Shown piece by piece: positions 19,049-61,063 of a stretch of 64,000 nt of DNA; the stretch's first letter is position 1; each line of letters starts with the position of its first letter. Made by a program: the position numbers and the translations under genes. Origin of the DNA: Actinomycetes bacterium (GTDB lineage Bacteria > Actinomycetota > Acidimicrobiia > Acidimicrobiales > Palsa-688); assembly GCA_021809105.1 (NCBI GenBank), contig JAKBAM010000002.1, positions 201,025 through 265,024 on the forward strand, written 5' to 3'. The notes beneath the pieces were generated by a model. It saw only the letters and a program-made list of their open reading frames with translations. It had not been told where the DNA came from and did no database searches.

Positions 19049-19051
19049 ACC

Positions 19052-22352: not shown

Positions 22353-22365
22353 CGGGCGTCGTTCT

Positions 22366-31365: not shown

Positions 31366-31415
31366 CAAGATCGGGGTGTGCCTGCGTTGAACGACGCGGC
31401 GCGTTAGGAGTGACC

Positions 31416-46770: not shown

Positions 46771-49700
46771 ATGGCGGTCCCGAATGCTCGACGCCGGCTG
46801 CGGTCCGCCGCCGGTATGCAGACGAAGTGGAGCAGAGCACTGGACCGGATCACCCTGGAGGCAGCGGCCGTCGCAGAGGCGACCGGCTATGCCTCGACCG
46901 ACGAGAGAGCCGCCCTGGAGGCGTCACCGCTGGCATGGGTCGGCGCGTTACGGCGCCTCATCTTCGAGACAGATGAGGCACTTAGCAGCGCGGCCCGCCT
47001 GCTTGGCGAGGAACGCGCCCAGGTCCTCGCCGACCTCAGCGCGGAGCGGCGGGCCCTGGCGACAGCCCTCGAGCGTCTGACCGGCGAAGTCCCCGCCGGT
47101 ACCGATGTTCGCAGGCCCCCTGCGCTCGAGCCCGAAGTCGAGCTGCCGGCCCCGCCACGCCTCCAAGCCTCCTGGGCCGACGGCCGAGTCGTGGTATGGG
47201 CGGCGGGGAGGGGCAGCTCGCCCCTCCCCGCCGACGAGCTCGACTCGATGCTCAAAGCGGCGGACGCCGGCGGGATCGACTGGGAGCACCACGCCTCGGT
47301 TGCTCTGCCGACGGGCCAGCGCGCCGATGCCCGCTCTGCGGCGATCGCGCAAACGCTCGGATGGTTGGTCGGCGTGGGAGCAGGCCAGGTCGGCAGCCGC
47401 GCGACTCTAGGGGCCAGCCTGGCGTGGATGGGCGAGATCGCGGTGTGGGGGGCGGAGCTTGTCGCGTCGGGCCGGATGGTCCCGGTCCTGCGAGGAAGCA
47501 CCGGGACCGGCGGTCCCCGCTCCGGGACCGCCCGGCACCGTATCCGGTGGGTTCCCGCGCTGCTGGCCCGGGACCGGCTGACCGACCTGGTCGACCGCAT
47601 GCCCGGCGCGGTGGTGGCTCTGCAGACCTCACCCCAACCCGAGGGCGTCTGCCGCTCGGTCCTTAGCGCGGTCGTCGATGCGGTGTCGCGCGCCGGAGCC
47701 GACCGCCTGGTCACGCCGGCCACCGTGCCCCAGGCCTCAAGCCGGGTCGAGATCTCCGAGGCGGTCCTCTCAGGCCTCGACGGCCGACCTTTCAGCGCCG
47801 AGGCCGAGCCGGCAGCCCGGCTCGCCGAGGATCTGAAGCGCTGGGCTGCTCCTGTGACCGTCGGCACCAAGATCGGATTGACGGTCCGGTTGGATCCGCC
47901 CGTCGATGACGGCGGGTGGTTGCTACGGGTGGAGGCCACGGGGGTCGACAAGGGGCCACTACCCGTGGAGCATGCCTTGGTCGTCGCGTCCGGCTCGAAG
48001 TCTCAACAAGTCGAGACCCAGCTGAGGCGCCTGGAGCGCCTCCTGCCGGTGCTGCGCCGGCCGAGCACCCGCCGAGGACAAGTCATCCTCGACGCGGAGG
48101 AGGCCGGCGAGCTGATGTTCAACCTCGGGTCGATCGTTGCGGCCGCTGGCTTCGAAGTGCTGCTACCAGTGGTATCCCGTAGGCGTCCGTCGCCACAGCT
48201 GAGGCTCTTCGCCGAGGCCATGGGCGGCCAGTCCCAGGTCGGCGTGGCACAGCTTTCCAACGTCCGCTGGTCCGTTCTCTTCGACGATCTCGAGCTCGAT
48301 GCCGCGGGCATCGCCAAGCTGGCCAGCGAAGCCCGGCCCTTGGTCCAGGTCAAGGGCCGCTGGGTCCGTATCGACCGGGCCGATCTGGCCGCCGCGGCCG
48401 CCGCGTTGGCCGAACGAGCTTCGATCACCCAGCTCGCCGGCGCCGCGCTGCTGCGGCACGCTGTAGGGCTCGAAGGCAACGCCCTCGGTGGTGCGGTGCG
48501 AGTCGAGGGCCACGGCTGGGCTGTGGACCTGGTGCAGGGTGCGACGACCCATCCCCCCGAACCACTCCAGGCGCCTTCGGGGTTCGAGGGTCACCTGCGC
48601 CACTACCAGGCGGAGGCGGCGGGGTGGCTCGGCTTCCTCGACCGAGCAAGACTTGGTGGCTGCCTGGCCATGGACATGGGCCTCGGCAAGACGCCCACCC
48701 TCCTCGCCCACCTCCTGGCCACGAGGGGCGACGGGCCGGCTCTGATCGTCTGCCCGCCCGCAGTGCTGAGCAACTGGGCCCGTGAAGCCGCCCGCTTCAC
48801 GCCGGGACTATCGGTGGCCCTGCACCACGGTCCGCGACGCGCGGATGCTGAGGGCTTGGTCCGCCTGTCGGCGAGCCACGATGTGGTGCTCACTACCTAC
48901 GCCACCGCCGTCCGAGACATCGATGCGCTGGCCCGGATCGATTGGCGTCGACTGGCGATAGACGAGGCCCAGGCCATCAAGAACCACACCAGCGACACCG
49001 CCCAGGCCCTCCGGCGGGTCCCCGCTCAGAGTCGCCTCGCCTTGACCGGGACTCCGGTCGAGAACGGCCTCGGGGACCTGTGGGCGATCTTGGACTTCAC
49101 CAACCCAGGACTGGTCGGGGGCCGGACTTCTTTCATCGAGCACTTGTCGCGCAACGGCGAAGGGCGCGCCGGCACGGAGGAAGGCGCCTTGCGGGCCCTG
49201 AACGGCCTCCTGGTCTTCCGCCGCACGAAGACCGAACCCGAGATCGCCGCCGAGCTGCCCGACAAGGTCGACAAGCTCGACTCGTGCGGGATGACCGCTG
49301 AGCAGGTCGGCTTGTACCAAGCCGTCGTCGACCGGTTGCTGGCCGAGGATCTCGATCAGGACAGCACCAAGCGCAAGGGTCAAGTGCTCGCCGCTATCAC
49401 TGCCCTCAAGCAGATCTGCGATCATCCGGCGGCCTACCTGGGTGATCACGACGCGGGAGCCGCCCTCGACGGACGCTCGGGCAAGTTGACCCGCCTCGAC
49501 GAGATCGTCGACGACGTGTTCGCGGCCGGGGAGCGTGTCCTCATCTTCACGCACTTCGCCCGCTGGGGCGAGAAGCTGGCTCGGTACCTGAGCGCCCGCA
49601 CGGGGACCGATGTCGGCTGCTATCACGGCGGCCTGTCCCGGACGGTGCGTGATGATCTCGTCGCCGAGTTCCAGCACGGCAAGGGCCCCGGCGCCCTCGT

Positions 49701-50052
49701 GCTGTCGATCAAGGCTGGTGGGTCGGGGCTCAACCTGACCGCCGCCCGCCATGTGGTCCTGTACGACCGGTGGTGGAACCCTGCGGTCGAGGATCAGGCC
49801 AGGGACCGTGCGTGGCGGATAGGCCAGACCAGCACCGTGCTGTCACACCGGTTGGTCTGCCCGGGGACGGTAGACGAACGGGTAGAGGAGATAGTCGCCG
49901 GCAAGCGGGAGGTGGCCGGCATGGTGCTACCCGCCCGCAGCTCTCTGGGAGACCTCGACGCAGCCCAGCTGCGTGCCGCGCTGGGCCTGGCGGTGGACGA
50001 GATCATCGAGGAGGAGTCGCCCCCCGCTGACAGCGAGGAGGAAGCCGCATGA
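46771..50052 (+). CDS. SNF2-family helicase (HelZ-like) with long N-terminal non-helicase region
   Basis: SNF2_N motif I LAMDMGLGKT, DEAQ box IDEAQAIKN and C-terminal helicase domain. Alternative start at 46816. Confidence 0.85.
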   Translation: MAVPNARRRLRSAAGMQTKWSRALDRITLEAAAVAEATGYASTDERAALEASPLAWVGALRRLIFETDEALSSAARLLGEERAQVLADLSAERRALATALERLTGEVPAGTDVRRPPALEPEVELPAPPRLQASWADGRVVVWAAGRGSSPLPADELDSMLKAADAGGIDWEHHASVALPTGQRADARSAAIAQTLGWLVGVGAGQVGSRATLGASLAWMGEIAVWGAELVASGRMVPVLRGSTGTGGPRSGTARHRIRWVPALLARDRLTDLVDRMPGAVVALQTSPQPEGVCRSVLSAVVDAVSRAGADRLVTPATVPQASSRVEISEAVLSGLDGRPFSAEAEPAARLAEDLKRWAAPVTVGTKIGLTVRLDPPVDDGGWLLRVEATGVDKGPLPVEHALVVASGSKSQQVETQLRRLERLLPVLRRPSTRRGQVILDAEEAGELMFNLGSIVAAAGFEVLLPVVSRRRPSPQLRLFAEAMGGQSQVGVAQLSNVRWSVLFDDLELDAAGIAKLASEARPLVQVKGRWVRIDRADLAAAAAALAERASITQLAGAALLRHAVGLEGNALGGAVRVEGHGWAVDLVQGATTHPPEPLQAPSGFEGHLRHYQAEAAGWLGFLDRARLGGCLAMDMGLGKTPTLLAHLLATRGDGPALIVCPPAVLSNWAREAARFTPGLSVALHHGPRRADAEGLVRLSASHDVVLTTYATAVRDIDALARIDWRRLAIDEAQAIKNHTSDTAQALRRVPAQSRLALTGTPVENGLGDLWAILDFTNPGLVGGRTSFIEHLSRNGEGRAGTEEGALRALNGLLVFRRTKTEPEIAAELPDKVDKLDSCGMTAEQVGLYQAVVDRLLAEDLDQDSTKRKGQVLAAITALKQICDHPAAYLGDHDAGAALDGRSGKLTRLDEIVDDVFAAGERVLIFTHFARWGEKLARYLSARTGTDVGCYHGGLSRTVRDDLVAEFQHGKGPGALVLSIKAGGSGLNLTAARHVVLYDRWWNPAVEDQARDRAWRIGQTSTVLSHRLVCPGTVDERVEEIVAGKREVAGMVLPARSSLGDLDAAQLRAALGLAVDEIIEEESPPADSEEEAA

Positions 50053-50065
50053 AAGGGATCTCGAC

Positions 50066-50326
50066 GTGAGCAAGAGAAGGCGACCCACCGCCAGTAAGCG
50101 CGTGGTGGACGCGAAGTTCTGGGGGCCCGATGAGGTGCCAGAGATCGTGCCGCCCCTGCTCGAGCCGACACCGGATCCTGCCGCGGTCGTTCGTTCCCTC
50201 GGGGCGCCCCCCTTGGCGGTGGACGCCTCTGTCGCAGAGCGGCACCTCACCGCCGTCTACGAGGAGGCGGTGCGGGCGGCCACCGCATTGGCTGCTGCCA
50301 ACGGGCTGCTCGCCCCTACCGACTGA
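50066..50326 (+). CDS. hypothetical small protein downstream of the SNF2 helicase
   Basis: GTG start 14 nt after the helicase stop with AAGGGA upstream. 86 aa, no recognisable domain. Confidence 0.35.
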   Translation: MSKRRRPTASKRVVDAKFWGPDEVPEIVPPLLEPTPDPAAVVRSLGAPPLAVDASVAERHLTAVYEEAVRAATALAAANGLLAPTD

Positions 50327-50399
50327 CTGTTCCTTCAGCGACGGGAACGTCACTCCGCCGGTACCGCGACGCGCCATGCGGGCCACCGCGAGGTGCGGC

Positions 50400-50624
50400 C
50401 TACTTGTACCGGTAGGTGATCCGACCGCGGGTCAGGTCATAGGGGCTGATCTCGACTTGCACCTTGTCGCCGGGCAGCACCCGGATACGGTTCATGCGCA
50501 TCTTGCCGGAGTTGTGGGCTAGCACTTCGTGTCCGTTGGCCAGCTCGACTTTGAACATGGCGTTCTTCAGCGCCTCGCTCACCGTGCCCTCCAGCACGAT
50601 TGCGTCTTCCTTCCCTTGGGGCAG
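50400..50624 (-). CDS. infA: translation initiation factor IF-1
   Basis: [55 protein letters not shown]. No in-frame AUG is close to the conserved N-terminus; probable CTG/non-AUG start 5 nt after GAGAGGAG. Confidence 0.8.
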
Positions 50625-50807
50625 GACTGCTCCTCTCGTTCGTGCCGACGCCGCGCCGGCCGCCCTCAGTCTGGCGCATAGGAGGCCTCTAGCGCCACGG
50701 TTCCAGACAGCGACGGGTGGCTCTTGGTCCGCGAGGCGCCGGCCCGGGGATGCCACGCCGTAGGCTCATCGGGGTGGAAACCGGACGGGGGTCGGGGAGG
50801 TAGGACA

Positions 50808-51698
50808 ATGACTGTCGTCCTCGCCCTCCTGTCCGCCGCCTTGTTCGGCTCTGGTGTAGGCCTCCAGCAGCGCCCGGCGCGTGACGTCCCCGACACCTAC
50901 GCGGCCAGGCCAGGTCTCCTCGCGAAGGTGGCCCTCCGACCGCTTTGGCTGGCTGGGATCGTCGCCGAGATCGCCGGCTTCGCCCTGCAGGTCGTCGCCC
51001 TCCGCGACGGATCCCTGGTGGTCGTGCAGCCCCTCATCACCACCTCACTCCTCTTCACCCTCGCCCTTTCTGGGATGTGGTCGGGTGATTCGATCACCGC
51101 CCGGGAGTGGGTCGGGGTGGTTGCGGTGATCGCCGGTCTCTCGGCGTTCATGGTGCTGGCGGCGCCGAGCGAGCACAGCAGCGGCGTCGCCAGCCAGTCC
51201 GACTGGATCATCCTCGGAGCCACGATGGCCGGCGGGGTCGGCGCCTTGATGGTCAGCGGCTTTCGCCTGGGTGGCCGCAGTCGAGCCGCGCTCTTCGGCC
51301 TGGCGGCCGGCCTTGGCGACGCCGTGATGGCTGTGCTGACCAAGGCGCTGGCCCACTCGCTCGGTGGCGGGGTGGGGCACGCGGTGCACACGTGGTCTCC
51401 CTACGCCCTGTGCGTAGCTGGCATCGGTTCGCTCTTGCTCAGCCAAACCGCCTATCAGACCGGGCGCCCCACCGTGTCACTGCCCCTGATCACCGTCACC
51501 GACCCGATCATCAGCTCGGTCATCGGGATCGCACTCTTCGGCGAGGTGCTACGCCTAGACGGCCTGAGGGCGCCGGCTGTCGTCCTCGCCGCGGCAGTGA
51601 TGATCGTCGGTCTCGTCGCCCTCACGAGATCCACTGCGGTGATCGAGCGCCACGCCGAGGCGACCGCCGTCGACGAGCCGGCGTCTGATCCGGCATGA
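50808..51698 (+). CDS. DMT-superfamily (EamA-like) membrane transporter
   Basis: About 10 TM helices with duplicated 4-5 TM halves. First gene of a four-gene overlapping operon. Confidence 0.6.
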   Translation: MTVVLALLSAALFGSGVGLQQRPARDVPDTYAARPGLLAKVALRPLWLAGIVAEIAGFALQVVALRDGSLVVVQPLITTSLLFTLALSGMWSGDSITAREWVGVVAVIAGLSAFMVLAAPSEHSSGVASQSDWIILGATMAGGVGALMVSGFRLGGRSRAALFGLAAGLGDAVMAVLTKALAHSLGGGVGHAVHTWSPYALCVAGIGSLLLSQTAYQTGRPTVSLPLITVTDPIISSVIGIALFGEVLRLDGLRAPAVVLAAAVMIVGLVALTRSTAVIERHAEATAVDEPASDPA

Positions 51699-52834
51699 GC
51701 GAGCCGAGGGACCTGCGCGTCCCGCCCGCGCGGGTGGTGTTCAGCGCCGAGGACCGGGTCCGGGTCCTGGACCTGATCGACCAGTCGCTGCGGACCGGCT
51801 CCCTCACCCTCGGTCCGGTAGGGGCCGCCTTCGAGGAGGCGTTTGCTGCCAGCCATCGAGCCCCCCACGCCATCGCTACCTCTTCGGGCACCAGCGCCCT
51901 CGAGATCGCGCTGCGCTCCCTCGGCGTCACCGGCGAAGTGATCGTGCCCGCCAATACCTTCTTCGCTACAGCCGCCGCCGTCATCCATGCAGGCGCCCGA
52001 CCCCGCTTCGCGGACGTCGAGCGTGCCACGTTGTCGCTGTCGGCCGCCACGATCGAGGCGGCGCTGACCCCTGCGAGCACCGCGGTGGTCGCGGTCCACA
52101 TCGGCGGCCTGATCAGCTCCGAGATGGACTCAATCGCCCAGCTGTGCGCGGCGAAAGGTTTGGTGCTGATCGAGGATGCCGCTCACGCCCACGGCTCGAC
52201 CCTCGGGGGGCGCCACGCCGGCTCGTGGGGAAGGGCTGCGACCTTCTCGTTCTATCCGACCAAGGTCGTGGCCGGTGCAGAGGGCGGCATGATCCTCACT
52301 GGCGAGGCTGAGCTGGCAGCGGAAGCTCGAATATTTCGTGACCAGGGAAAGGCCGGGTTCCATGGTGGTGCCCACGTGCGGCTGGGATCCGCTTGGCGGA
52401 TGAGCGAGGTTCACGCGGCGGTCGGCTTGGTGCACCACGGGCGGCTCGACGCAGCCGTCGCCACCCGCCGGCGTGTCGCGGCTTTTTACCACTCGGAGCT
52501 GGCCGATCTGGACGGCATTACCGGCCAGGCCGAGCCGTCCGGCGCCAGGAGCTGCCACTACAAGTACGTCGCCTTCCTGGAGGTGGGCGTGGACCGGGAG
52601 CGATTGCGGACCGTGCTCCGGGAAGATCACGGCGTGGCGCTGTCGGGCGAGGTGTATCCCCGCCCTCTCCATCACGAGCCGGTTTTCGCAGATGTCCTCC
52701 ACGGCGGCCTCCCCGAGACAGAAGACGTCTGCGCCCGCCACGTCTGCCTACCTGTGTACTCCGATATGACCGACGAAGAAGCTGGCATCGTCGTGTCAGC
52801 CCTTCGCTCGGCGCTCCCACGGGCCCGGCAATGA
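51695..52834 (+). CDS. DegT/DnrJ/EryC1/StrS-family PLP-dependent aminotransferase
   Basis: ATGA overlap with the DMT gene. Family fold with the conserved region GTSALEIALRSLG...VIVPANTFFAT. 379 aa. Confidence 0.85.
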   Translation: MSEPRDLRVPPARVVFSAEDRVRVLDLIDQSLRTGSLTLGPVGAAFEEAFAASHRAPHAIATSSGTSALEIALRSLGVTGEVIVPANTFFATAAAVIHAGARPRFADVERATLSLSAATIEAALTPASTAVVAVHIGGLISSEMDSIAQLCAAKGLVLIEDAAHAHGSTLGGRHAGSWGRAATFSFYPTKVVAGAEGGMILTGEAELAAEARIFRDQGKAGFHGGAHVRLGSAWRMSEVHAAVGLVHHGRLDAAVATRRRVAAFYHSELADLDGITGQAEPSGARSCHYKYVAFLEVGVDRERLRTVLREDHGVALSGEVYPRPLHHEPVFADVLHGGLPETEDVCARHVCLPVYSDMTDEEAGIVVSALRSALPRARQ

Positions 52835-53571
52835 CCGGGAGCGCATCCCGTCGCCTCGGCGCTGCGAGTGCGGGTTTCGCCGGCATGTTCGCCGCCATCC
52901 AGTGGGTGCCGAGCGTCGTCAGCCTCGGTCAATGGCTGCCTGTTCGGTCGCTCCCATCGGGATGGTGCAGTTGGCGTGGGCGCCCTGGCACCACAGTGGC
53001 GCTCACCTTCGACGACGGTCCCGACCCCGCGACCACCCCCCGCATCCTCGACGCCCTCGATCGGCTGGGCCTGGTAGCCACCTTCTTCTGCACCGGCGCG
53101 CACGTCGAACGCCACCCTGGCTTGGCCTGCGAGCTACGAGACCGGGGGCACGCAGTCGGATCTCACGGCTATGCCCACGAGCACCACCTCTTACATGGCC
53201 CCGGCTGGATTGCCCGGGATCTCGACGCGGCCCTGAGGGTGTCGGCAGCGGCGGGGCTCAGCCCCCGGTGGTACCGGCCTCCTTACGGGCAGTGCAGCGG
53301 CCCGACCCTCTTCGCGGCGCGCCGGAGGGGCCTGAGTACGGTCCTGTGGTCGGCATGGGGACGGGAGTGGGCTGCACCCGACGCCGGAGCGGTGGCCGCT
53401 CGCGTCGGTGCGGCGCTGGCGCCCGGAGCGGTCGTGCTACTCCATGACAGCGACGCCTTCTCGCCACCCGGGTCGGTCGAGCGCACCCTGGTTGCGCTCG
53501 AGTCTGTTGCCGCTGACCTGGCCGACCGCGGTCTGCGCGCCGCCACCCTCGACGAGGTAATGGCGGAGTGA
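52831..53571 (+). CDS. polysaccharide deacetylase (NodB-homology, CE4) family protein
   Basis: ATGA overlap. NodB motifs TFDDGP and HGYAHEH. Hydrophobic N-terminus. Confidence 0.8.
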   Translation: MTGSASRRLGAASAGFAGMFAAIQWVPSVVSLGQWLPVRSLPSGWCSWRGRPGTTVALTFDDGPDPATTPRILDALDRLGLVATFFCTGAHVERHPGLACELRDRGHAVGSHGYAHEHHLLHGPGWIARDLDAALRVSAAAGLSPRWYRPPYGQCSGPTLFAARRRGLSTVLWSAWGREWAAPDAGAVAARVGAALAPGAVVLLHDSDAFSPPGSVERTLVALESVAADLADRGLRAATLDEVMAE

Positions 53572-54716
53572 GACTGCGGCGGGTGATGTTCCTCTCCGGC
53601 TCTTTGGGCAAGGGGCACGATGTGGTCGCCGAGGCCTGCGCCGCAGCCCTGGCGCCCTACAGCGTGGAGTCGACGGTGCTCGATTCGATGCGGCTCCTCG
53701 GTGGCGGCGCGGCCGCTGCCGGCGACTGGGCCTTCAAGCGGCTGCTGTCGGTGACCGCCATCTACGACGCCTTCCATTTCTCCCAGCTGCGTGACGACGG
53801 CCGCCTCGGCCGAGCGGCCGACCGGGCGGCTGTGGACAAGATGCACCGGGCTTTGAGCCGGGAGATCGACCGCTTCGGACCGCAGCTGGTCGTCCCGGTG
53901 TTCGCCACCGGTGCGGGGGCCGCGATCCGGCTCAAGCGGGAAGGTGGCACTTTCTCCACCATGGTCGTCATGACCGACTCCTTTGCTCATCGGATGTGGG
54001 TTCACGAGGGCACCGACGCCTTCCTCGTGACTTCTGCCGCTGCGGCCGAATCCGTGCGCCGGTACTGGCCGGAAGCGCCTGTGTCGGTCGTCGCGGCCCC
54101 GGTGCGGCCCGAGTTCTACGAGGCTCCCCCCCGGGCCGAAGCCCGTTCGCGCCTCGGGGTGCCCCCCGATGTCAGCTGCGTGCTGTTGATGTCGGGCGCG
54201 TGGGGGCTCGGGCCGCTGGACGAGGCGTCTGAAGCGCTGTCAGCCGACGGTACCTGGGTGCTGGCGGTGGCGGGGACGAACACCACCATGGAGCGCTCCC
54301 TCCGCCGCCTTGCGGACCGCCAGCCGAACATCGTGGCCTTCGGCTACACCGACCGGGTGCCTGAGCTCATGTCGGCGTGCGACGTGGTAGTCACCAGCTC
54401 CGGCGACACCTGCAGCGAAGCCCGTACTCTCGGTCGGGGGATCATCCTCATCGACGTCGTGCCGGGTCACGGACGTGAGAACTTGATGCATGAGCTGGAG
54501 TTGGGTGGCGCCACCGCCTGCCTCCCGAACGCGGGGTCGATCGCCAGGGCGGTGCGCAGTTTCCTCGGTGACCCGCAGAGGTCGAAGGTGGCGCCGGCGG
54601 CCGATCCCAGGGCCGCCGAGAAGCAGTTCCTGGATGCCGTGAGGGCGATAGGGTTCGAGCTACCGGAGAACCAGCTGTCAGCCAACCGGATGGGTGGTTC
54701 ACGAAAGACGGTCTGA
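53568..54716 (+). CDS. MGDG-synthase-family (GT28, UgtP-like) glycosyltransferase
   Basis: ATGA overlap. N-terminal LSGSLGKGHDVVAEA matches the MGDG_synth domain. GT28 C-terminal domain. Confidence 0.8.
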   Translation: MRLRRVMFLSGSLGKGHDVVAEACAAALAPYSVESTVLDSMRLLGGGAAAAGDWAFKRLLSVTAIYDAFHFSQLRDDGRLGRAADRAAVDKMHRALSREIDRFGPQLVVPVFATGAGAAIRLKREGGTFSTMVVMTDSFAHRMWVHEGTDAFLVTSAAAAESVRRYWPEAPVSVVAAPVRPEFYEAPPRAEARSRLGVPPDVSCVLLMSGAWGLGPLDEASEALSADGTWVLAVAGTNTTMERSLRRLADRQPNIVAFGYTDRVPELMSACDVVVTSSGDTCSEARTLGRGIILIDVVPGHGRENLMHELELGGATACLPNAGSIARAVRSFLGDPQRSKVAPAADPRAAEKQFLDAVRAIGFELPENQLSANRMGGSRKTV

Positions 54717-55487
54717 GAGCATCCGGTAGGCGTTGGGGAGCACCCGCCGGATCCTCACGGGCAGGCCGAGCCATCCGGGCACGACCCGGTCGGGGCAGCC
54801 GTGCGCAAGGCAGTAGAGGATGGCTTCAGCCACCTCAGAGGCCGGTATGGGGCTCGGCCAGGCCCGCGCATAGGGTTGGTTGCGCCGTCGGAAGAAGTCG
54901 GTGGCGACGACACCGGGGTTGACGACCGACACCTTGACGCCGCGGGGGCGCAGCTCGACTCGCAAGGCTTCGCCCAGCGCCGCCAGGCCCGCCTTCGACG
55001 CGGAGTAAGCGGCCTCGCCGCCCAAGGGGAGCAGCCCGGTGATGGATCCCACCAGAACGATCTGGCCTCCGCCCCCGGCGATCAGGTGGGGGAGAGCAGA
55101 GCGTAGCAGGTGGGCGCCGGCGCGTAGGTTGATGTCGAGCACGGCGTCGAGCTCGCCGGCGGTCATGGTCTGGAAGGGGCCGGCCCAGCCGGCGCCGGCG
55201 TTGGAGATGACGATGTCGAGCCGGCCGAGTGCGGCGACGGCCTGGGCCACTGCCTCCGAAGGACCGGTGGATGTCGCAAGATCGGCCTGAATCGTCACCG
55301 GCCCGGTGAAGTCACGGGCTACGTCTACGAGGGCGGTGAGGTCTCGGCCCACTACAGCGACTCGGATCCCTTCGGCATCGAGCAGCCTGGCCGTCGCCGC
55401 GCCGATCCCGCTCGACGCCCCGGTGACCAAGGCCGTGCGCCCCGGCGGGAGGCGTGCGCGGCGGCGGCCGGGATCAGCTCGGCTCAC
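54699..55487 (-). CDS. classical short-chain dehydrogenase/reductase (SDR), translationally coupled to hpnH
   Basis: TGASSGIG cofactor motif and YSASK catalytic motif. GTG start forms a GTGA overlap with the hpnH stop. Confidence 0.7.
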   Translation of the reverse strand: MSRADPGRRRARLPPGRTALVTGASSGIGAATARLLDAEGIRVAVVGRDLTALVDVARDFTGPVTIQADLATSTGPSEAVAQAVAALGRLDIVISNAGAGWAGPFQTMTAGELDAVLDINLRAGAHLLRSALPHLIAGGGGQIVLVGSITGLLPLGGEAAYSASKAGLAALGEALRVELRPRGVKVSVVNPGVVATDFFRRRNQPYARAWPSPIPASEVAEAILYCLAHGCPDRVVPGWLGLPVRIRRVLPNAYRMLSDRLS

Positions 55488-56488
55488 GACCCTACAGCGG
55501 CTCGCAATGATTGCTTGAGGGACTTCGTCGTCGCCAGCACGGCGCTGGGCTCGTAGCCGCAGTGGGCCATGCAGTTGGCGCAGCGTGGGTCCTTGCCCCG
55601 CCCGTAGCGGTCCCAATCTGTGGTCGCGATCAGCTCCTCGTAGGTCTCGGTGTAGCCATCGGACATCAGGTAGCAGGGCTTCTGCCAGCCGAGCACCGAA
55701 TAGCTCGGGATGCCCCACGGGGTGCAATCGAAGTCGACCTTTCCCTCGAGGAAATCGAGGAAGAGAGGGCTGTGGTTCAGCCGCCATCTCTTGCGCCGGC
55801 CGTCGGCGAAGGCGTCGGCGAAGAGCTTCGTCGAGGACTTAGTGCTGAGGAAGTTGACCTGGTCAGGCGCCTTCTCGTAGGCATAGCCGGGAGAGATCAT
55901 CATCTGGTCGACCTGGAGCTCGTCGTTCAGGTAGTCCAACACCTCCCGCACCGTTCTCACCGAGTCGGTGTTGAAGAACGTCGTGTTGGTGTTGACCGTG
56001 AACCCCCGCTCCTTGGCCTTGCGGATGGCGGCGACTGCCTTGTCGAAGGTGCCGTCCCTGCTCACCGACTCGTCGTGACGATCCCGGAGGCCGTCGATGT
56101 GGACCACCCAGCTGAAGCGGGGGTTCGGCTCGAACTTTTCCAGCTTCCGCTCGAGTAGCAAGGCGTTGGTGCAGAGGTAGACGAATTTCTTGCGGGCGAG
56201 GAGCTCGGCGACGATCTTGTCGATCTCCGGGTGCAGCAGCGGCTCCCCGCCGGCGATGGACACCATCGGGGCCCGGCTCTCCTCGATTGCGCCCACCGCC
56301 TGCTCGACGGTGAGGCGCCTGCGCAGGATGTCGGTGGGATACTGGATCTTGCCGCATCCGTTGCACGACAAGTTGCAGGCGAAGAGGGGCTCGAGCTCGA
56401 CGATCAGGGGGAACTTGTCGCGCCCGGCCAGCTTTTGCTTGGCCATGTAGGTGCCGACCTGGACACTTTGACGGAGGGGTACACCCAT
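55484..56488 (-). CDS. hpnH: adenosylhopane synthase, hopanoid-associated radical SAM protein HpnH
   Basis: CNLSCNGC radical-SAM cysteine triad. N-terminus ...FPLIVELEPLFACNLSCNGCGKIQYP closely matches the HpnH family. Confidence 0.9.
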   Translation of the reverse strand: MGVPLRQSVQVGTYMAKQKLAGRDKFPLIVELEPLFACNLSCNGCGKIQYPTDILRRRLTVEQAVGAIEESRAPMVSIAGGEPLLHPEIDKIVAELLARKKFVYLCTNALLLERKLEKFEPNPRFSWVVHIDGLRDRHDESVSRDGTFDKAVAAIRKAKERGFTVNTNTTFFNTDSVRTVREVLDYLNDELQVDQMMISPGYAYEKAPDQVNFLSTKSSTKLFADAFADGRRKRWRLNHSPLFLDFLEGKVDFDCTPWGIPSYSVLGWQKPCYLMSDGYTETYEELIATTDWDRYGRGKDPRCANCMAHCGYEPSAVLATTKSLKQSLRAAVGS

Positions 56489-56491: not shown

Positions 56492-58030
56492 CTATCGGAC
56501 CTCCGGAGGTAGGGAGAAGGAGACATTTTCGGTGTGGACCGTTCGCTCGGAGACCTTCACCGGTCCCAGGCCTCGGAGCGCGTCGACCACCCGCGCCACG
56601 ACGGACTCCGGCGTAGACGCTGCTGCGGTGAGGCCGATATTGCCCACACCTGTCAACCATGCCAGGTCGAGGGCTTCCGGGTCGTCGACCAGCTCCGCCG
56701 CGGCACCTGCACTCCGGGCGGCTTCGACCAGCCTGGCTGCGTTGGACGAGTTGGACGAGCCGACGACCAGCACCAGGTCGGTGTCGGCCGCGACGGCCCG
56801 CACGGCATCCTGGCGGTTGTGGGTGGCGTAGCAGATGTCCCCCGCGTGGGGACCGATCAGGGTCGGGTAGCGGCGGCGCAGCGCCTCCACCACCGAGGAG
56901 GTCTCGTCGGGCGAGAGGGTGGTCTGAGTGACGTAGGCGACGCGGGCCCCGTCGACGGTTTCCAGGGCGTCCACCTGTTCGGGAGTGGAGACCAGGTGCA
57001 TTGCCGGAGCCTCGCCCATGGATCCCTCCACCTCGTCGTGGCCGGCGTGGCCGACGAGCACCACTTCGTAGCCCCGCTCGTTGAAGCGGCGGATCTCGGT
57101 GTGGACCTTGGCGACCAGGGGGCAGGTGGCATCGACGACTGTTATACGCCGGGCGGCGGCATCCGCCCTCACCGACGGCGCGACTCCGTGGGCGGAGAAC
57201 ACGACCGTGGCCCCGTCGGGGACCTCTTCGAGCTCCTGGACGAACACCGCCCCCCGACCTTCGAGCTCGGTGACCACGTGGGAGTTGTGGACGATCTGGC
57301 GCCGCACGTAGACCGGTGCACCATATCGGCCGATGGCACGCTCGACGGTCTCGATAGCTCGCGATACGCCGGCACAGAACGAACGTGGGCCGGCCATCAA
57401 CACGCGGCGTGGCTCTGTCGCTGCGGCCCACGCAACCAGGACCGGGGCGGCAGCCCTGAGCGCTCGCAGGGCGGCGATGCCTCCGCTGACGGTGCTCAAC
57501 GAGATGAGGTCCCGACCGGGGGTGTCGGCGATAGCACGCACCACGGCAACGGGTCGCTCCCAAGGATGGCGCAGGATCGCCGCCGACTCCATATCGACTG
57601 CGGCTGCCCCGAGAGCGGCCAACGCGTCCCGTGCGGGCCGACCCCGGACCAAGCTGTCGGTGCTGGCGATGGTCCCGGTTCGTGCTTGAAGGCCCGCCCG
57701 GCGCAGGGCGGAGGCCAACAGGGTCGCAGACGGCAGGTCGGTCACGAGCTGCCCATGGTCGTCCACCACTCGATCGGCGACTACGAGGTCGCCTGGGTGC
57801 AGGTCGTTCACCAACGCACCAGCCACGCCCGCCACGACCATGGCCTTCCCGGGCAAGCTCGCCATGCGGGCGGCGGCCGCGGCCGCGCGGGCGGGACCTG
57901 CGCCGGTGCGCTCCACTCGTAGGCCCGACGCGCCTCGGCCCACCGCTCGCGCCTCGACGCGCAGCGGCACCAGTGCCAGCAGCGCGCCGCTGGTCGCAGG
58001 TGCCGGGCGTGGCTCCGCTCGACCTTGCAT
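56492..58030 (-). CDS. fusion protein: HpnG-like nucleoside phosphorylase (PNP/MTAN family) N-terminal domain plus IspH (4-hydroxy-3-methylbut-2-enyl diphosphate reductase) C-terminal domain
   Basis: N-terminal PNP_UDP_1 motifs AAVDMESAAIL and VAVVRAIADTPG. The C-terminus from RVLMAGPRSFCAGVSRAIE to YVTQTTLS is IspH/LytB. No stop codon separates the two domains in the 512-codon ORF. Confidence 0.8.
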   Translation of the reverse strand: MQGRAEPRPAPATSGALLALVPLRVEARAVGRGASGLRVERTGAGPARAAAAAARMASLPGKAMVVAGVAGALVNDLHPGDLVVADRVVDDHGQLVTDLPSATLLASALRRAGLQARTGTIASTDSLVRGRPARDALAALGAAAVDMESAAILRHPWERPVAVVRAIADTPGRDLISLSTVSGGIAALRALRAAAPVLVAWAAATEPRRVLMAGPRSFCAGVSRAIETVERAIGRYGAPVYVRRQIVHNSHVVTELEGRGAVFVQELEEVPDGATVVFSAHGVAPSVRADAAARRITVVDATCPLVAKVHTEIRRFNERGYEVVLVGHAGHDEVEGSMGEAPAMHLVSTPEQVDALETVDGARVAYVTQTTLSPDETSSVVEALRRRYPTLIGPHAGDICYATHNRQDAVRAVAADTDLVLVVGSSNSSNAARLVEAARSAGAAAELVDDPEALDLAWLTGVGNIGLTAAASTPESVVARVVDALRGLGPVKVSERTVHTENVSFSLPPEVR

Positions 58031-60001
58031 TCAGCGATCTCCAGATGCGTAGCGCCCGAGCGCCGTCAGCGGGAAGACCAGTCGGTAGAGGTGGTAGTTG
58101 ATGTTGAAGTCCCACGGGAAGCCGGTGCCCGTGTACTGAGGCTCGTCCCATGTCCCGTCGGGCCGCTGGGTCCCGACGAGGAACGCCACACCCGCCCTGG
58201 TCGCGGCGCTCTCGCGCTCTCCGGCGGCCAGCAGGGCGAGGAGGGCCCAGGCCGTCTGTGACGGTGTCGAATCGCCTCGTCCCCTCCACTGCTCGTCGAC
58301 GTAGGAGCGCATGTCCTCACCCCAGCCCCCGTCGGGGTTCTGGTGTGCCTCCAGCCACGCGACCGCCCGGCGCACCCGCTCGTCGCCTGGCGCCACCCCG
58401 GCGTCGATGAGTGCCGGGATGGCCGCGCCGGTGCCGTAGACGTAGTTGCTGCCCCAGCGACCGAACCAGGAGCCGTCATCCTCCTGCTGGCTGCCGAGCC
58501 AGTCGACGGCGCGAGCTACCGTCTCGTGCGGCACGCCAGGCTCACCCGCGAGCATCTCGATGACATGGGCGGTGACGTCGGCTGACGGGGGGTCGGTCAC
58601 ACGTCCGAAGTCGCAAAACGGCAGGGCCGCACACAGCTCGCTGTCGTTGTCGACGTCGAAGGCGCCCCACCCCCCGTCCCTGCACTGCATGCCGAGGGTC
58701 CAGGCCACCCCCCGCTCTACTGCCGCGCAGCGGGGACCCGTGTCACCTGCGGCCACCCCTGCCCGGCGTAACGCCATGATCACCTCGGCGGTGTCGTCGA
58801 TGTCGGGATAGAGATCGTTGGCGAACTCGAACGCCCAGCCGCCCGGCTCGAGCTCGGGGCGGCGCACCGCCCAGTCGCCCTTGATGCGAACCTCCTCTGC
58901 CACCAGCCAACCGGCGGCCGCCTGCATGGCTGGATCGTCGGGGGCGACCCCTGCATCGGCCAAGGCCACCACCGCCAGGGCGGTGTCCCACACCGGGGAC
59001 TGGCAGGCCTCGACGTGGCGCCCACGGTGGTCATCGAGCACGAAGCCGTCGATGCCGGCGAGCGCTGCCTTCATCACCGGGTGCTCAATGGAGTAGCCCT
59101 GGAGGTGCAAGGCGATCACGGAGTAGACGATCGGCGGCTGGATACCCCCCCAGCAGCCGTCGGCCTCCTGCCGCGAGAGGATCCAGCGTTCTGCCCGGGA
59201 GAGGCAGGCGCGGCGCACCGCGGCCCGGGGCAGGACCCAGCGAGGTAGGCGCTCGTAGCGGTGAAGTAGCCGGTCGAGCGCCTGGAAGGCGAGGGCGGTA
59301 GGGGTGCGGGAAGCTGGCTTGGACGCGGCCGGCGGCGATGCCAGCTCGTCTAGGGCGAAGGGCAGCGGGCGAGCGGGACGGTGGGCCATCACGACGCTCA
59401 GCGCGACGATCGTCTGGCGGGCCCAGCACCCGAAGTCGTAGATGTTGAGCGGTGCCCACTTCGGCAGCAACATGATCTCGGCCGGAAGTACCGGGAGCTC
59501 CTCCCACGGCCAAGCGCCGACCATCGCCATCCAGATCCGGGTGAAGACCCGGGTTCGGGCGAGACCGCCGTGGGATCGGATCCACGTCGCGGCTGCCACC
59601 ATGTGCGCTTCCCGGGCGTCATGGCCCGAGAGGCGCAGCGCCACGTAGGCCTCGACCGTGGTGGAGAGATCTCCTGGGCCGGCGAAGTATGTCGCCCACG
59701 CCCCGTCCTGACGTTGGTGGGAGGCAATCCAGCGCCCGGCGGCGGCCCTCGTGGCATCGTCGAGGATCCCGAGGAAGTGGCGCAACAGGAGGTCCTCGGC
59801 ATCCATGGTGACGTTGGTCTCGAGCTCCCCCTTCCACCATCCACCGGGGTGTTGGAGCTGCAGGAGGTGCTCGCAGGCGCGGTCGCGCGCATCGACTGCT
59901 CCCGCCACATCCTCTGCCCCGACGACCACGAGGCGGTCGGCTTCGTGGGGTGCTGGCGATGTGGGTTCTTCGTCGACGGGCCGCTCGGCGAGCGAGGTCA
60001 C
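58031..60001 (-). CDS. shc: squalene-hopene cyclase
   Basis: Catalytic DIDDTA (DXDDTA) motif and several QW motifs (DGGWG, DGSWFGRWG). GTG start forms a GTGA overlap with the FPP synthase stop. Stop abuts the next gene (TGAATG). Confidence 0.9.
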   Translation of the reverse strand: MTSLAERPVDEEPTSPAPHEADRLVVVGAEDVAGAVDARDRACEHLLQLQHPGGWWKGELETNVTMDAEDLLLRHFLGILDDATRAAAGRWIASHQRQDGAWATYFAGPGDLSTTVEAYVALRLSGHDAREAHMVAAATWIRSHGGLARTRVFTRIWMAMVGAWPWEELPVLPAEIMLLPKWAPLNIYDFGCWARQTIVALSVVMAHRPARPLPFALDELASPPAASKPASRTPTALAFQALDRLLHRYERLPRWVLPRAAVRRACLSRAERWILSRQEADGCWGGIQPPIVYSVIALHLQGYSIEHPVMKAALAGIDGFVLDDHRGRHVEACQSPVWDTALAVVALADAGVAPDDPAMQAAAGWLVAEEVRIKGDWAVRRPELEPGGWAFEFANDLYPDIDDTAEVIMALRRAGVAAGDTGPRCAAVERGVAWTLGMQCRDGGWGAFDVDNDSELCAALPFCDFGRVTDPPSADVTAHVIEMLAGEPGVPHETVARAVDWLGSQQEDDGSWFGRWGSNYVYGTGAAIPALIDAGVAPGDERVRRAVAWLEAHQNPDGGWGEDMRSYVDEQWRGRGDSTPSQTAWALLALLAAGERESAATRAGVAFLVGTQRPDGTWDEPQYTGTGFPWDFNINYHLYRLVFPLTALGRYASGDR

Positions 60002-61041
60002 GATTCCCGATCCACCACGAAGGCAGCGAGGTCGGCGAGCGTACGGTGGGGCACAGGGGAGAGACGCACCCGCTCCAGGGCTCCGAGGGCGCCGTCTAGG
60101 TGCGACTTGGCCCGCGTCCGGGCCCATTCCCTGCCCCCGCACGCTTCGACCAGGTAGGCGGCACGAGTGACTTGCGCCTCATCGAGAACTGGTGCGCCCG
60201 GGGTTCCGACGACCAGCGCTCTCAGCTCGTCGGACTCGTCGCCCCCCGCCGCCAGTGCGGCCACGACCGGCAGCGACTTCTTGCGGCGCCGGAGATCGTT
60301 GCCCGCCGGCTTTCCGGTGCGCGCCGGGTTGCCCCAGATCCCGAGCAGGTCGTCGACGGCCTGGAAGGCGAGCCCCAGGTGTCCCCCGTAGTCGCGGAGG
60401 GCACCGATGGTGGCGGGGGGTGCGCCGGCCAGGACTGCCCCGATCGATGCCGCTGCGCCGAGGAGAGCGCCGGTTTTGGCCGCGCACATGGCGACACAAT
60501 CGTCGACCGACACGGTGGATTGCCTCTCGAACGCGATGTCGTCGGCCTGTCCGGCGATCATCGCGGCAGTGGCGTCCGCCAGCAGCTCAGCCGCCGCGGA
60601 GCCGTGCGCCTCGCACTCGAGGAGCACCTGCTGGGCCGCCACTGCCAGCGCGTCGCCGGCGATTATCGCCGGCCCGATCCCGAAGACGGACCACACCGTG
60701 GGGCGGTGGTGGCGCTCGGTGTCACCGTCGATGATGTCGTCGTGGATCAGGGAGTAGTTGTGGACCAGCTCAACCGCCACCCCACCGGGCACGCCGATCT
60801 CGGGCTCGGCCCATGCCGCCGCGGCGGAGAGGAGGGCCAGGGCGGGGCGCACCAGCTTGCCGCCCGGGGCGTCGAGCGGGCGGCCATCAGTATCGGTCCA
60901 GCCGAGGTGGTAGGAGGCCATCCTGGCTATGTCGGGGTTCATGCGCCTCACGGCGTGTTCCATCGCAGGTTGGATCGCGCTCCGGGTCCGAGCCAGGGCA
61001 TCGGGCAGGCTGCCGCCGTTGGAGGAAGGAAGTTGGGTCAT
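59998..61041 (-). CDS. polyprenyl (farnesyl) diphosphate synthase
   Basis: First DDxxD motif DDIIDGD and second motif FQAVDDLLG. Confidence 0.85.
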   Translation of the reverse strand: MTQLPSSNGGSLPDALARTRSAIQPAMEHAVRRMNPDIARMASYHLGWTDTDGRPLDAPGGKLVRPALALLSAAAAWAEPEIGVPGGVAVELVHNYSLIHDDIIDGDTERHHRPTVWSVFGIGPAIIAGDALAVAAQQVLLECEAHGSAAAELLADATAAMIAGQADDIAFERQSTVSVDDCVAMCAAKTGALLGAAASIGAVLAGAPPATIGALRDYGGHLGLAFQAVDDLLGIWGNPARTGKPAGNDLRRRKKSLPVVAALAAGGDESDELRALVVGTPGAPVLDEAQVTRAAYLVEACGGREWARTRAKSHLDGALGALERVRLSPVPHRTLADLAAFVVDRES

Positions 61042-61063
61042 GCGGTCACTCGCTCGCATTCGG

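Follow-up and report, generated by a model that had tools for sequence, protein, structure and literature searches.

Positions 50808-54716 on the forward strand of the window, by which we mean the whole 64,000-nucleotide stretch analyzed here, carry four genes in the order DMT permease, DegT aminotransferase, CE4/NodB deacetylase and GT28 glycosyltransferase. The source is an Acidimicrobiia metagenome-assembled genome (MAG). The open reading frames span 50808-51698 (296 aa), 51695-52834 (379 aa), 52831-53571 (246 aa) and 53568-54716 (382 aa), and neighboring genes are joined by 4-nt stop/start overlaps. The DMT/DegT junction at 51695 reads ccggcATGAgcg and the DegT/CE4 junction at 52831 reads ggcaATGAccg, both with the overlap ATGA; the CE4/GT junction at 53568 reads ggaGTGAgac, with the overlap GTGA. 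A Shine-Dalgarno-like GGGGAGG is located 7 nt upstream of the DMT start codon (ATG at 50808). The identical four proteins, together with the 262-aa SDR described below, were also called independently in three public assemblies and in one Logan contig. The four genes form a single, translationally coupled operon, and the enzymes that they encode are intact; the three overlaps bear out the preliminary description of this locus as to the operon.

The families named in that description (DMT, DegT, NodB/CE4 and GT28) are likewise confirmed by profile matches. Pfam recovers three of them through PF01041, PF01522 and PF06925; for the DMT protein it gave only weak EamA/NIPA matches, and the family comes from NCBIfam NF038012 (DMT_1, 142 bits, cut-off 50). 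This DMT-superfamily membrane protein shows about 9-10 hydrophobic segments in its hydropathy profile and matches none of the solved structures. Members of its family go with the glycosyltransferase in Acidimicrobiia, Frankia, Nocardia and Jatrophihabitans, and the protein is a candidate glycolipid flippase or exporter. The second gene encodes a DegT/DnrJ/EryC1-type PLP sugar aminotransferase (PF01041, 331 bits) with the SFYPTK lysine motif. Among solved structures it comes nearest to perosamine synthetase 3bn1 (3e-50) and ArnB 1mdo, and it stays under the cut-off of every NCBIfam equivalog. The CE4/NodB-type de-N-acetylase (PF01522, 92.6 bits) has all its catalytic motifs intact as read from the translation (TFDDG, HGYAH, RPPY and LLHD), and its N-terminal extension, PSVVSLGQW.P.R.LP..LCRWRG, is kept in orthologues. 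Peptidoglycan GlcNAc deacetylases and chitin deacetylases are its nearest solved structures.

The last gene encodes a GT-B lipid glycosyltransferase of the GT28 type, similar to MGD1 and UgtP. It matches PF06925 (MGDG_synth) with 36.9 bits at a gathering threshold of 25, and the invariant motifs are present, including the N-terminal SGSLGKGHD loop and DVVPGHGRENL. Sequence matches in the PDB include a processive diacylglycerol (DAG) beta-glucosyltransferase (9wde, 1.8e-25) and MGD1 (4wyi), and the AlphaFold model (pLDDT 82.6) has MGD1 4x1t as its top fold match (E 2.8e-15, TM 0.76). Among NCBIfam models the diglucosyl-DAG synthases score best, yet below threshold.

The operon adjoins, tail-to-tail, a hopanoid operon of the composition hpnCDE-pps-shc-hpnG/ispH-hpnH-SDR. 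The preliminary description had noted an 18-bp overlap at this junction, and the stop codons confirm it: the GT gene stops at 54716, and the SDR has its stop codon at 54699-54701 on the opposite strand. The overlap is due to a non-conserved, low-confidence C-terminal tail of the glycosyltransferase. Because orthologous GTs end ~17 residues earlier, and ~300 bp separate GT and SDR in the closest relative (L001), we do not regard it as a conserved feature.

On the reverse strand follow a classical SDR of 262 aa (54699-55487; adh_short, 162 bits), the radical SAM adenosylhopane synthase HpnH (55484-56488; TIGR03470, 521 bits, cut-off 225; Radical_SAM and DUF3463 domains), an HpnG-like nucleosidase fused to IspH/LytB (56492-58030; PNP_UDP_1 and LYTB domains) and a squalene-hopene cyclase (SHC, 58031-60001; SQHop_cyclase_N 390 bits, SQHop_cyclase_C 459 bits). 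The GTG start of the SDR overlaps the hpnH stop (GTGA), so that the two genes are start/stop-coupled. The fusion protein scores 83 bits with TIGR03468 (HpnG), under the cut-off, and exceeds the cut-offs of the IspH models; the same fusion, 509-512 aa long, is present in three related loci (L083-L085). SHC likely starts with the GTG at 60001, overlapping the polyprenyl synthase stop. The rest of the operon in the window (59998-63549), assigned by Pfam domains, comprises this polyprenyl synthase (59998-61059), an HpnE-type amine oxidase (61064-62470) and an HpnD-type squalene/phytoene synthase (62467-63549), the latter two with an ATGA overlap at 62467-62470. A second SQS_PSY gene comes next, from 63336 onward. 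Further membrane-lipid genes in the window encode a desaturase and a CMAS-type methyltransferase.

Known hopanoid-tailoring enzymes had been described as missing from the window, and this holds for every large ORF scanned: none has a GT2, YdjC, B12-radical-SAM or Aminotran_3 domain, and a tblastn search of the window with a sister-genome HpnO also found nothing. The HpnI/HpnK(/HpnJ) system of Burkholderia and Rhodopseudomonas resembles the logic proposed here, an N-acetyl-hexosamine being placed on bacteriohopanetetrol before a deacetylase frees the amine, and both gene sets adjoin shc and hpnH. The enzymes differ: the glycosyltransferase here is GT-B/GT28 instead of GT2, the deacetylase is CE4/NodB instead of YdjC, an HpnJ-type radical SAM enzyme is missing, a DegT aminotransferase and a DMT membrane protein are added, and the hopanoid acceptor is putative. 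HpnO, a class-III aminotransferase of the aminobacteriohopanetriol route, also puts an amino group on a hopanoid head group, as proposed for the cassette. DegT proteins form another subfamily of PLP fold-type I, with keto-sugars as the usual substrates, and HpnO is absent from the window. Since DegT and HpnO co-occur in sister genomes, DegT is not simply a replacement for HpnO.

We compared about 165 related loci, with flanks as available. DegT and GT are paired in nearly all of them, and a fuller cassette of 5-6 genes (DegT, a GalE/UXS-like SDR, CE4, GT28 and DMT) is widespread in Acidimicrobiia and Actinomycetes. The window operon is a reduced copy of this actinobacterial cassette. Maintenance of the unit across two classes favors an amino-glycolipid or hopanoid product; loss from the window copy of the extended SDR that usually goes with DegT counts against the hopanoid reading. 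The proposal of a four-gene hopanoid-tailoring module is right as to families and operon structure and gains some support from recurrent hopanoid adjacency, but the four genes are the reduced form of a wider cassette that is mostly unlinked to hopanoid genes.

Several observations connect the cassette with hopanoids. It adjoins hopanoid operons in five different arrangements: GT> <SDR or HpnO <HpnH in the clade of the window (at least 13 genomes), GT> <HpnH in L034, co-directional HpnH> DegT> in L025, DMT> <HpnH in Jatrophihabitans (L073) and GT> CE4< SQS>... in Catenulispora (L075). Its other recurrent neighbors are unrelated housekeeping genes. Within the window clade a block of SNF2, IF1, cassette and hopanoid operon is inherited together, and its roughly 13 genomes therefore count as a single event. 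In this clade, the CE4-bearing genomes have the SDR after HpnH, and in CE4-less sister genomes HpnO takes that slot. The SDR, whose nearest solved structures include clavaldehyde dehydrogenase 2jah, belongs to a distinct subfamily (142-296 bits against its relatives, at most 75 bits against generic SDRs) that lies downstream of HpnH in L001-L005 and L075 and, in the Actinomycetes loci L073 and L079, within the cassette. This SDR connects the two modules; it could act as a ribosylhopane reductase or as the dehydrogenase that partners DegT. In the MAG CAVWQR01, the cassette is on contig 1 (L023) and a hopanoid operon on contig 2 (L082). Known hopanoid producers, namely Frankia, Protofrankia and Pseudofrankia, also have the cassette. 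Speaking against a glycosylated product, the published Frankia hopanoids are, to our knowledge, bacteriohopanetetrol and its phenylacetate ester, not glycosides.

In Nocardia, the GT occurs only in N. africana, N. aobensis, N. cerradoensis, N. kruczakiae, N. violaceofusca (which we presume to belong alongside the N. nova-complex carriers) and two further strains. Species placed in the N. nova complex include N. africana, N. aobensis and N. kruczakiae (PMC6421342), and N. cerradoensis is near N. aobensis by 16S (PMC13616604). A hopene cluster has been reported only in N. transvalensis and Nocardia clade E, which includes the complex member N. elegans (PMC7413640). That the GT is confined to the clade with the reported hopene cluster lends some support to a hopanoid link. 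Furthermore, a 2025 preprint describes some Actinomycetota with HpnH but no known downstream enzyme (PMC12324291).

Against such a link, about 120 of the about 165 loci show no hopanoid gene in their available flanks; most loci lack one within 10 kb. Not one long-flanked metagenome locus of the Actinomycetes type has hopanoid genes, and the Frankia and Nocardia cassette loci are unlinked to them. The complete 5.49-Mb chromosome OY970164.1 (L013), whose cassette proteins are in the protein database, encodes a GT 89% identical to that of the hopanoid-adjacent L025, and the L025 SHC's 120 closest relatives (reaching ~69% identity) include none from this chromosome. This suggests a cassette carrier without a closely related SHC, which comes close to what the preliminary description had named as evidence against a hopanoid role, an equal frequency of the cassette in genomes lacking shc.

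These data also fit an operon that makes and flips a cationic amino-glycosyl (hexosaminyl or diamino-sugar) DAG, hopanoid proximity reflecting loose clustering or co-regulation of membrane-lipid functions, as the desaturase and methyltransferase genes of the region would suggest. UgtP and MGD1, the closest characterized GTs by sequence and fold, glycosylate DAG, and the 89% identity between the L013 and L025 enzymes implies the same acceptor in both. The ypfP(ugtP)-ltaA pair of Staphylococcus and Bacillus follows the same logic of a GT28 enzyme encoded with a membrane permease, a potential glycolipid flippase, and the GT shares family, fold and the N-terminal G-x-G-H loop with YpfP/UgtP and plant MGD1. 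However, sequence identity to UgtP/MGD1 is only about 20%, the GT scores far under the equivalog cut-offs of NCBIfam, the permease is DMT where LtaA is MFS, aminotransferase and deacetylase imply an amino sugar instead of glucose or galactose, and the genomic association is with hopanoid, not teichoic-acid, genes. Five differently arranged hopanoid juxtapositions are also far above the roughly 0.5 expected by chance, an estimate that takes ~100 lineages, each with a ~0.5% probability that the cassette is 10 kb or less away from a single 10-kb operon in a genome of 4-5 Mb. The SDR subfamily common to cassette and hpnH operon and the distribution in Nocardia argue in the same direction, and we know of no hexosaminyl-DAG from cassette-bearing taxa. 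We regard a DAG acceptor as a serious but rather doubtful alternative.

The Arn (PmrHFIJKLM) pathway for lipid A aminoarabinose, in which ArnB is a DegT protein, ArnD a CE4 enzyme acting on a lipid-linked sugar and ArnE/F a DMT-superfamily flippase, also displays a cationic sugar on the membrane's outer face. By analogy, an amino sugar could be built on a polyprenyl-phosphate or Lipid-I/II-type carrier, deacylated, flipped and placed on a cell-wall polymer. The best solved matches of DegT include ArnB, and the fuller cassette's extended SDR is similar both to GalE and to UDP-glucuronate decarboxylases. MurG is also a GT28 enzyme, and its structures appear among the GT fold matches (E about 5e-9). 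We nevertheless consider this unlikely: no locus has a GT2 (ArnC-like), a formyl-/acetyltransferase (as in ArnA) or a GT-C (ArnT-like), and no Arn equivalog is reached (DegT, 169 bits against an ArnB cut-off of 631). The N-terminal domain of the GT is MGDG_synth, its match with MGD1 is far better than that with MurG, the DMT protein is full-length with about 10 transmembrane segments in place of paired small ArnE/F-like subunits, and the hosts are monoderm-lineage Actinomycetota without lipid A.

Even less probable is an ordinary sugar-tailoring or polysaccharide-modification set (exopolysaccharide or secondary metabolite) without a lipid product, for which the hopanoid adjacency would be inherited synteny without meaning. 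The single-event block of the window clade and locus L084, where the cassette is gone while hopanoid operon and flanks are undisturbed, would agree with this, the latter also being a point against hopanoid tailoring, and DegT and CE4 are common in polysaccharide and antibiotic-sugar pathways, with many such structures among the DegT matches. But the GT belongs specifically to the MGD1/UgtP type with lipid acceptors, genes for a polymerase, Wzx/Wzy, PKS/NRPS or an extra GT are found beside the cassette in no lineage, and the compact, self-contained unit keeps its membrane protein across two classes.

We therefore favor, with a probability of about three in four, an uncharacterized amino-glycolipid synthesis and export module. 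At the cytoplasmic membrane face, the GT28 enzyme would use a nucleotide sugar to attach a HexNAc-type or amino sugar to the primary hydroxyl of a membrane lipid, and CE4 would strip the N-acetyl group, exposing a free amine. DegT may supply or add a further amino group via a keto-sugar intermediate. Its partner in most genomes is presumably the GalE/UXS-like extended SDR; in the window lineage, which lost it, this role would have to fall either to the classical SDR coupled to hpnH or to an enzyme encoded elsewhere. The DMT protein would then move the cationic glycolipid to the outer leaflet. Judged from the sequence comparison of the about 165 loci, a hopanoid as the decorated lipid is plausible, with real but incomplete support. 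Somewhat short of even odds, we tentatively propose that the acceptor is the C35 hopanepolyol of the adjoining operon: the hpnH-coupled SDR would reduce ribosylhopane to bacteriohopanetetrol, and the cassette would yield amino-glycosyl bacteriohopanetetrol through enzymes non-orthologous to HpnI (GT2) and HpnK (YdjC).

The plus-strand operon at 50808-54716 consists of four genes encoding a membrane protein of the DMT superfamily, a DegT-type aminotransferase, a CE4/NodB deacetylase and a GT28 glycosyltransferase (GT). At the three junctions between them we read 4-nt stop/start overlaps (ATGA at 51695, ATGA at 52831 and GTGA at 53568), in agreement with the preliminary description of a single translationally coupled operon. 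Public gene calls for the same DNA (MAG GCA_027326245.1 and others) contain identical proteins and match our gene model of the window; in the loci compared with it, ORFs were chosen with homology support. Scans of 49900-56000 for promoters, terminators and inverted repeats gave nothing beyond chance, and neither Rfam (gathering thresholds) nor a tRNA search gave a match anywhere in the window.

Domain searches confirmed the families assigned earlier to GT, DegT and CE4, and the fourth assignment was recovered through NCBIfam: the DMT protein scores 142 bits against NF038012 (cut-off 50), falls just under the Pfam thresholds (EamA 25.9 versus 28.2, NIPA 25.1 versus 26.2) and, with about 9-10 hydrophobic segments, is a member of the DMT superfamily. 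The aminotransferase matches PF01041 with 331 bits over profile positions 8-360 of 360, carries the PLP-binding lysine motif SFYPTK and belongs to the DegT/DnrJ/EryC1/StrS family; perosamine synthetase and ArnB are its closest solved structures. The CE4/NodB deacetylase (PF01522, 92.6 bits) has the catalytic motifs TFDDG, HGYAH, RPPY and LLHD, all kept in its orthologues, and is closest to solved peptidoglycan and chitin deacetylases. In GT, the N-terminal MGDG-synthase domain PF06925 scores 36.9 bits (Pfam gathering threshold 25); the same domain is precomputed for nearly all GT homologues. An N-terminal SGSLGKGHD loop typical of MGD1 and UgtP is accompanied by an invariant DVVPGHGRENL motif, and the nearest solved relatives by sequence are the processive diacylglycerol beta-glucosyltransferase 9wde (1.8e-25) and Arabidopsis MGD1 (4wyi). 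The AlphaFold model (pLDDT 82.6) has MGD1 4x1t as its best PDB fold match (E 2.8e-15, TM 0.76), with MurG and other GT-B enzymes as weaker matches. GT is a GT28 lipid glycosyltransferase with a GT-B two-Rossmann fold nearest MGD1/UgtP.

An NCBIfam scan of GT, DegT and CE4 missed every equivalog cut-off. DegT reached 227 bits for PseC (423 required), 201 for DesI (650) and 169 for ArnB (631); GT reached 89.5 and 49.3 bits for the diglucosyl-diacylglycerol synthases (500 and 557) and is not a UgtP equivalent by this measure. The cassette proteins belong to the GT28, DegT, CE4 and DMT families at the superfamily level only. Because the key motifs of DegT, CE4 and GT are intact, the cassette enzymes look active. 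The CE4 proteins share an N-terminal extension, from Acidimicrobiia to a clade with CE4 and GT only, in which a weakly hydrophobic stretch precedes the motif PSVVSLGQW-P-R-LP--LCRWRG (52831-52990 in the window); it may be a membrane-interface or partner-binding element. The extension is unlike a standard signal peptide, and secretion of CE4, which we considered, appears doubtful, as its N-terminus is only weakly hydrophobic and leads into the conserved motif, not into a cleavage site.

The distribution of the cassette was surveyed with a GT alignment against one genome per species (80 loci) and with an Actinomycetes-type GT alignment against JGI metagenomes (80 loci), and loci were compared by tblastn and ORF clustering. 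The window is from Acidimicrobiia, and its GT shares 81% identity with the Acidiferrimicrobium sp. IK enzyme; a DegT-GT pair is kept in Acidimicrobiia, Frankia, Protofrankia, Pseudofrankia, some Nocardia, Catenulispora and Jatrophihabitans. In its commonest form the cassette encodes DegT, an SDR of the extended type (about 310 aa), CE4, GT and DMT, five genes in all. Present in most copies, the extended SDR lies between DegT and CE4/GT (for example 8314-9243 in locus L025, 8942-9934 in L043 and 3491-4441 in L071), has an Epimerase domain and finds its closest relatives among GalE-type UDP-hexose 4-epimerases and UDP-glucuronate decarboxylases. It is absent from the window and from the whole window clade, where no evident source of a keto-sugar for DegT remains. 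A search of the 64 kb gave no close match to it; the one candidate, an unrelated epimerase of 29% identity at 16479-17381, was discarded. Since the five-gene form is the commonest and the window clade lacks the extended SDR, the window operon is, on gene content, a shortened form of a cassette that is widespread and uncharacterised. One further clade has CE4 and GT only, and the cassettes of some Actinomycetes additionally encode a PhyH-type dioxygenase and a classical SDR. The gene for this Fe(II)/2-oxoglutarate dioxygenase directly precedes that for DegT in the Jatrophihabitans locus L073 (6159-7007) and in L042, L079, L086, L090 and L010, where it hints at an extra hydroxylation step.

Several other genes recur around the cassette. 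A small IF-1 paralogue (eIF-1a domain, 60 aa in public calls) is located at about 50440-50620 on the minus strand, within an ORF at 50400-50756, between an SNF2 helicase and the cassette; it has the same place in the sister genomes L083-L085 and in related loci. An aldehyde dehydrogenase, often of 473 aa, is encoded within a few kb of GT in several clades including the one with CE4 and GT only (44963-46525, minus strand, in the window; also L023, L027, L039, L041, L046, L051, L058 and L064), a grouping from loose clustering that does not imply orthology. Other membrane-related genes of the window encode an acyl-ACP-type fatty-acid desaturase beside a CMAS-type (cyclopropane/mycolate-like) methyltransferase (21453-23280, minus strand), PspA/IM30 (17464-18231, plus strand) and an SPFH/Band-7 protein (31410-32585, plus strand). 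In Frankia loci, a Band-7 gene is found about 2.5 kb downstream of the cassette, as in L043 (13728-14930).

The hopanoid operon, a complete one for C35 hopanoids, converges on the cassette from the minus strand, with the order two SQS_PSY genes, HpnE-type oxidase, polyprenyl synthase, squalene-hopene cyclase (SHC), HpnG-IspH fusion, the adenosylhopane synthase HpnH (TIGR03470, 521 bits) and a classical SDR (54699-55487). It is translationally coupled as well, by ATGA at 62467-62470, GTGA at 59998-60001 and GTGA at 55484-55487, the last placing the GTG start of the SDR over the hpnH stop. GT and this SDR are convergent and overlap by 18 bp, as described before. We ascribe no function to this overlap: it results from a non-conserved C-terminal tail of the window GT and is already absent from the nearest relative. 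The fusion protein (509-512 aa; 56492-58030, minus strand, in the window) consists of an HpnG-like nucleoside phosphorylase domain (PNP_UDP_1) and a complete IspH/LytB, which catalyses the final step of the MEP isoprenoid pathway. It is kept in several hopanoid operons of Acidimicrobiia (L083 11944-13482, L084 12040-13569, L085 11932-13470), and the database protein P0215 combines SHC and LytB domains instead. Hopanoid operons lacking the cassette have an Amidohydro_3 protein of about 540-590 aa after HpnH in the same orientation (L081 15677-17302, L082 13945-15708).

None of the known hopanoid tailoring enzymes was found in the window, and the earlier statement to this effect holds for the ORFs scanned. 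These contain no GT2, YdjC, B12-radical-SAM or class-III aminotransferase (Aminotran_3) domain. There is no NCBIfam match to HpnI (TIGR03472), a GT2 enzyme of GT-A fold, whereas the GT here is GT-B/GT28; nor is there a YdjC protein comparable to HpnK (TIGR03473), the deacetylase here being CE4. A tblastn search of the window for HpnO, an Aminotran_3 protein encoded next to hpnH, gave nothing; HpnO is present in the sister genomes L008, L083, L084 and L085. The cassette thus differs in both enzyme families from HpnI/HpnK, with which it shares the proposed order of glycosylation followed by deacetylation.

We propose, with a probability of roughly three in four, that the operon makes an amino-sugar glycolipid. 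GT would act at the cytoplasmic face with a nucleotide-activated HexNAc or amino sugar as donor, CE4 would expose a free amine, DegT would introduce a further amino group via a keto intermediate, and DMT would translocate the product. The cassette is an uncharacterised combination of known enzyme families, for which a new substrate is plausible. An Arn-like carrier pathway has three families in common with the cassette, but equivalents of ArnA, ArnC and ArnT are absent from it, and we consider such a pathway quite improbable. With a GT of the lipid-glycosyltransferase type, a non-lipid sugar pathway appears very improbable.

For the acceptor of the amino-sugar glycolipid, a hopanepolyol made by the neighbouring operon is a tentative choice, to which we give somewhat less than even odds. 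Acceptance of bacteriohopanetetrol by a GT28 enzyme is chemically reasonable because its terminal CHOH-CH2OH resembles the glycerol end of diacylglycerol. Cassettes linked to shc or hpnH occur in 16 of the 80 species-representative loci. As single-linkage clusters of neighbour families per GT clade collapsed, we based the case on distinct junction architectures and found five: GT> <SDR or HpnO <HpnH in the window clade (at least 13 genomes at species level, with L083 and L085 in addition), GT> <HpnH in L034 (Ilumatobacteraceae), co-directional HpnH> DegT> in L025, DMT> <HpnH in L073, and GT> CE4< and then the entire hopanoid operon in L075 (Catenulispora). With the window clade scored as a single event, five adjacency events are observed versus about 0.5 expected by chance, by our own estimate assuming about 100 lineages, each with about 0.5% probability of falling 10 kb or less from a single operon 10 kb long. 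The other recurrent neighbours (ETF, ABC and MFS transporters, hydrolases) are unrelated.

Co-occurrence was also followed beyond direct linkage. In MAG CAVWQR01, contig 1 bears the cassette (L023) and contig 2 the hopanoid operon (L082). Within Nocardia, GT is found only in N. africana, N. aobensis, N. cerradoensis, N. kruczakiae, N. violaceofusca and two further strains; N. violaceofusca presumably falls in the same group as the others. N. africana, N. aobensis and N. kruczakiae are listed in the N. nova complex (PMC6421342), and by 16S N. cerradoensis is near N. aobensis and N. africana (PMC13616604). A hopene cluster has been reported in this genus only for clade E, including the complex member N. 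elegans, plus N. transvalensis (PMC7413640). N. nova and N. elegans, although of the clade with the reported hopene cluster, are not among the closest homologues of GT. The clade E assignment is drawn from N. elegans (subfamily II, clade E) and published membership of the N. nova complex. Confinement of the cassette to shc-bearing genomes is supported in Nocardia, Frankia and CAVWQR01, and possibly violated by the chromosome OY970164.1.

This complete 5.49-Mb chromosome (locus L013) carries a GT 89% identical to that of the hopanoid-adjacent L025, and its cassette proteins are present in the protein database. Since SHC and GT identities track in other pairs, an SHC orthologue of about 85% identity is expected; none from L013 is present in the list of the 120 sequences nearest to the L025 SHC, which extends to about 69% identity and is informative for close relatives only, as several SHC-bearing contigs, such as those of L053 and L009, are absent from it. 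For L008, the same comparison paired cassette with SHC. The result suggests, indirectly, that L013 is a cassette carrier without a related SHC, and it is the most serious point against a hopanoid acceptor. In addition, hopanoid genes are missing within 10 kb of most loci, including all those of Frankia and Nocardia, and no Actinomycetes-type metagenome cassette with long flanks has one nearby. The hopanoids of Frankia described so far are reportedly bacteriohopanetetrol and its phenylacetate ester, not glycosides. In L084, the flanks are unchanged without the cassette, which is therefore a dispensable insert. This locus is a natural insertion/deletion variant: at 14617-20428, HpnH and HpnO are followed directly by the IF-1-like and SNF2 helicase genes, and exactly the EamA-DMT-DegT-GT block is missing that is present in L083, L085 (14483-21935) and the window (46771-55487).

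The closest homologues of GT point instead to diacylglycerol. The main rival to a hopanoid product is accordingly an amino-glycosyl diacylglycerol, which the same steps would yield in analogy to ypfP-ltaA; against the five hopanoid junctions, we hold it to be possible, at odds clearly below even. Of the route proposed in the preliminary description, to an aminoglycosyl-hopanoid or amino-glycolipid, the amino-glycolipid module is probable and adjacency to hopanoid genes is recurrent, but the unlinked majority of loci, the GT homology and L013 speak against the hopanoid part. For the loci covered, the co-occurrence check suggested there is likewise divided, with the five junction types, Nocardia and CAVWQR01 on one side and the unlinked loci and L013, a probable negative, on the other.

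The classical SDR coupled to hpnH offers a further link to hopanoid chemistry. In the window, it occupies the slot held by HpnO in sister genomes, and within the window clade the two co-vary with CE4: where CE4 is present, the SDR follows HpnH, and where CE4 is absent, HpnO is in the slot. As this concerns two sister subclades, it counts as about one observation. The SDR represents a distinct subfamily (142-296 bits among members versus at most 75 for generic SDRs), found after HpnH in L001-L005 (L001 being the closest relative), beside HpnH in Catenulispora L075, and inside the divergent arm of the cassette in L073 and L079. Clavaldehyde dehydrogenase, an aldehyde-reducing SDR, is among its nearest solved relatives. 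HpnO acts on ribosylhopane, and to our knowledge no gene has been assigned to the conversion of this compound to bacteriohopanetetrol. Because of the shared slot, the aldehyde-reducing relative and this vacant step, the SDR is a concrete candidate for a ribosylhopane reductase making bacteriohopanetetrol. The conversion has been predicted or presumed to be non-enzymatic (2026 review, PMC13459092), and in some Actinomycetota HpnH is found without any of the enzymes known to act after it (2025 preprint, PMC12324291).

Combining these elements, Actinomycetota might have a route to amino-sugar composite hopanoids that is not orthologous to HpnI/HpnK: GT28 would glycosylate bacteriohopanetetrol, CE4 and DegT would provide the sugar with one or two free amines, DMT would flip the product and the SDR would be the missing reductase; this complete scheme we regard as rather unlikely.

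Composite bacteriohopanepolyols serve as biomarkers of taxa and environments, and we know of head-group genes only from Proteobacteria-type pathways (HpnI/J/K/O). Should hopanoids be what the cassette decorates, genes could be assigned to a so far unexplained part of hopanoid chemistry in actinobacteria, new amino-glycosyl hopanoids would be expected in soil Acidimicrobiia, in Frankia and in the Nocardia nova complex, and there would be a testable candidate for the bacteriohopanetetrol-forming reductase. If its product is an amino-glycosyl diacylglycerol, the cassette would still represent a widespread, uncharacterised cationic glycolipid pathway of soil Actinomycetota.
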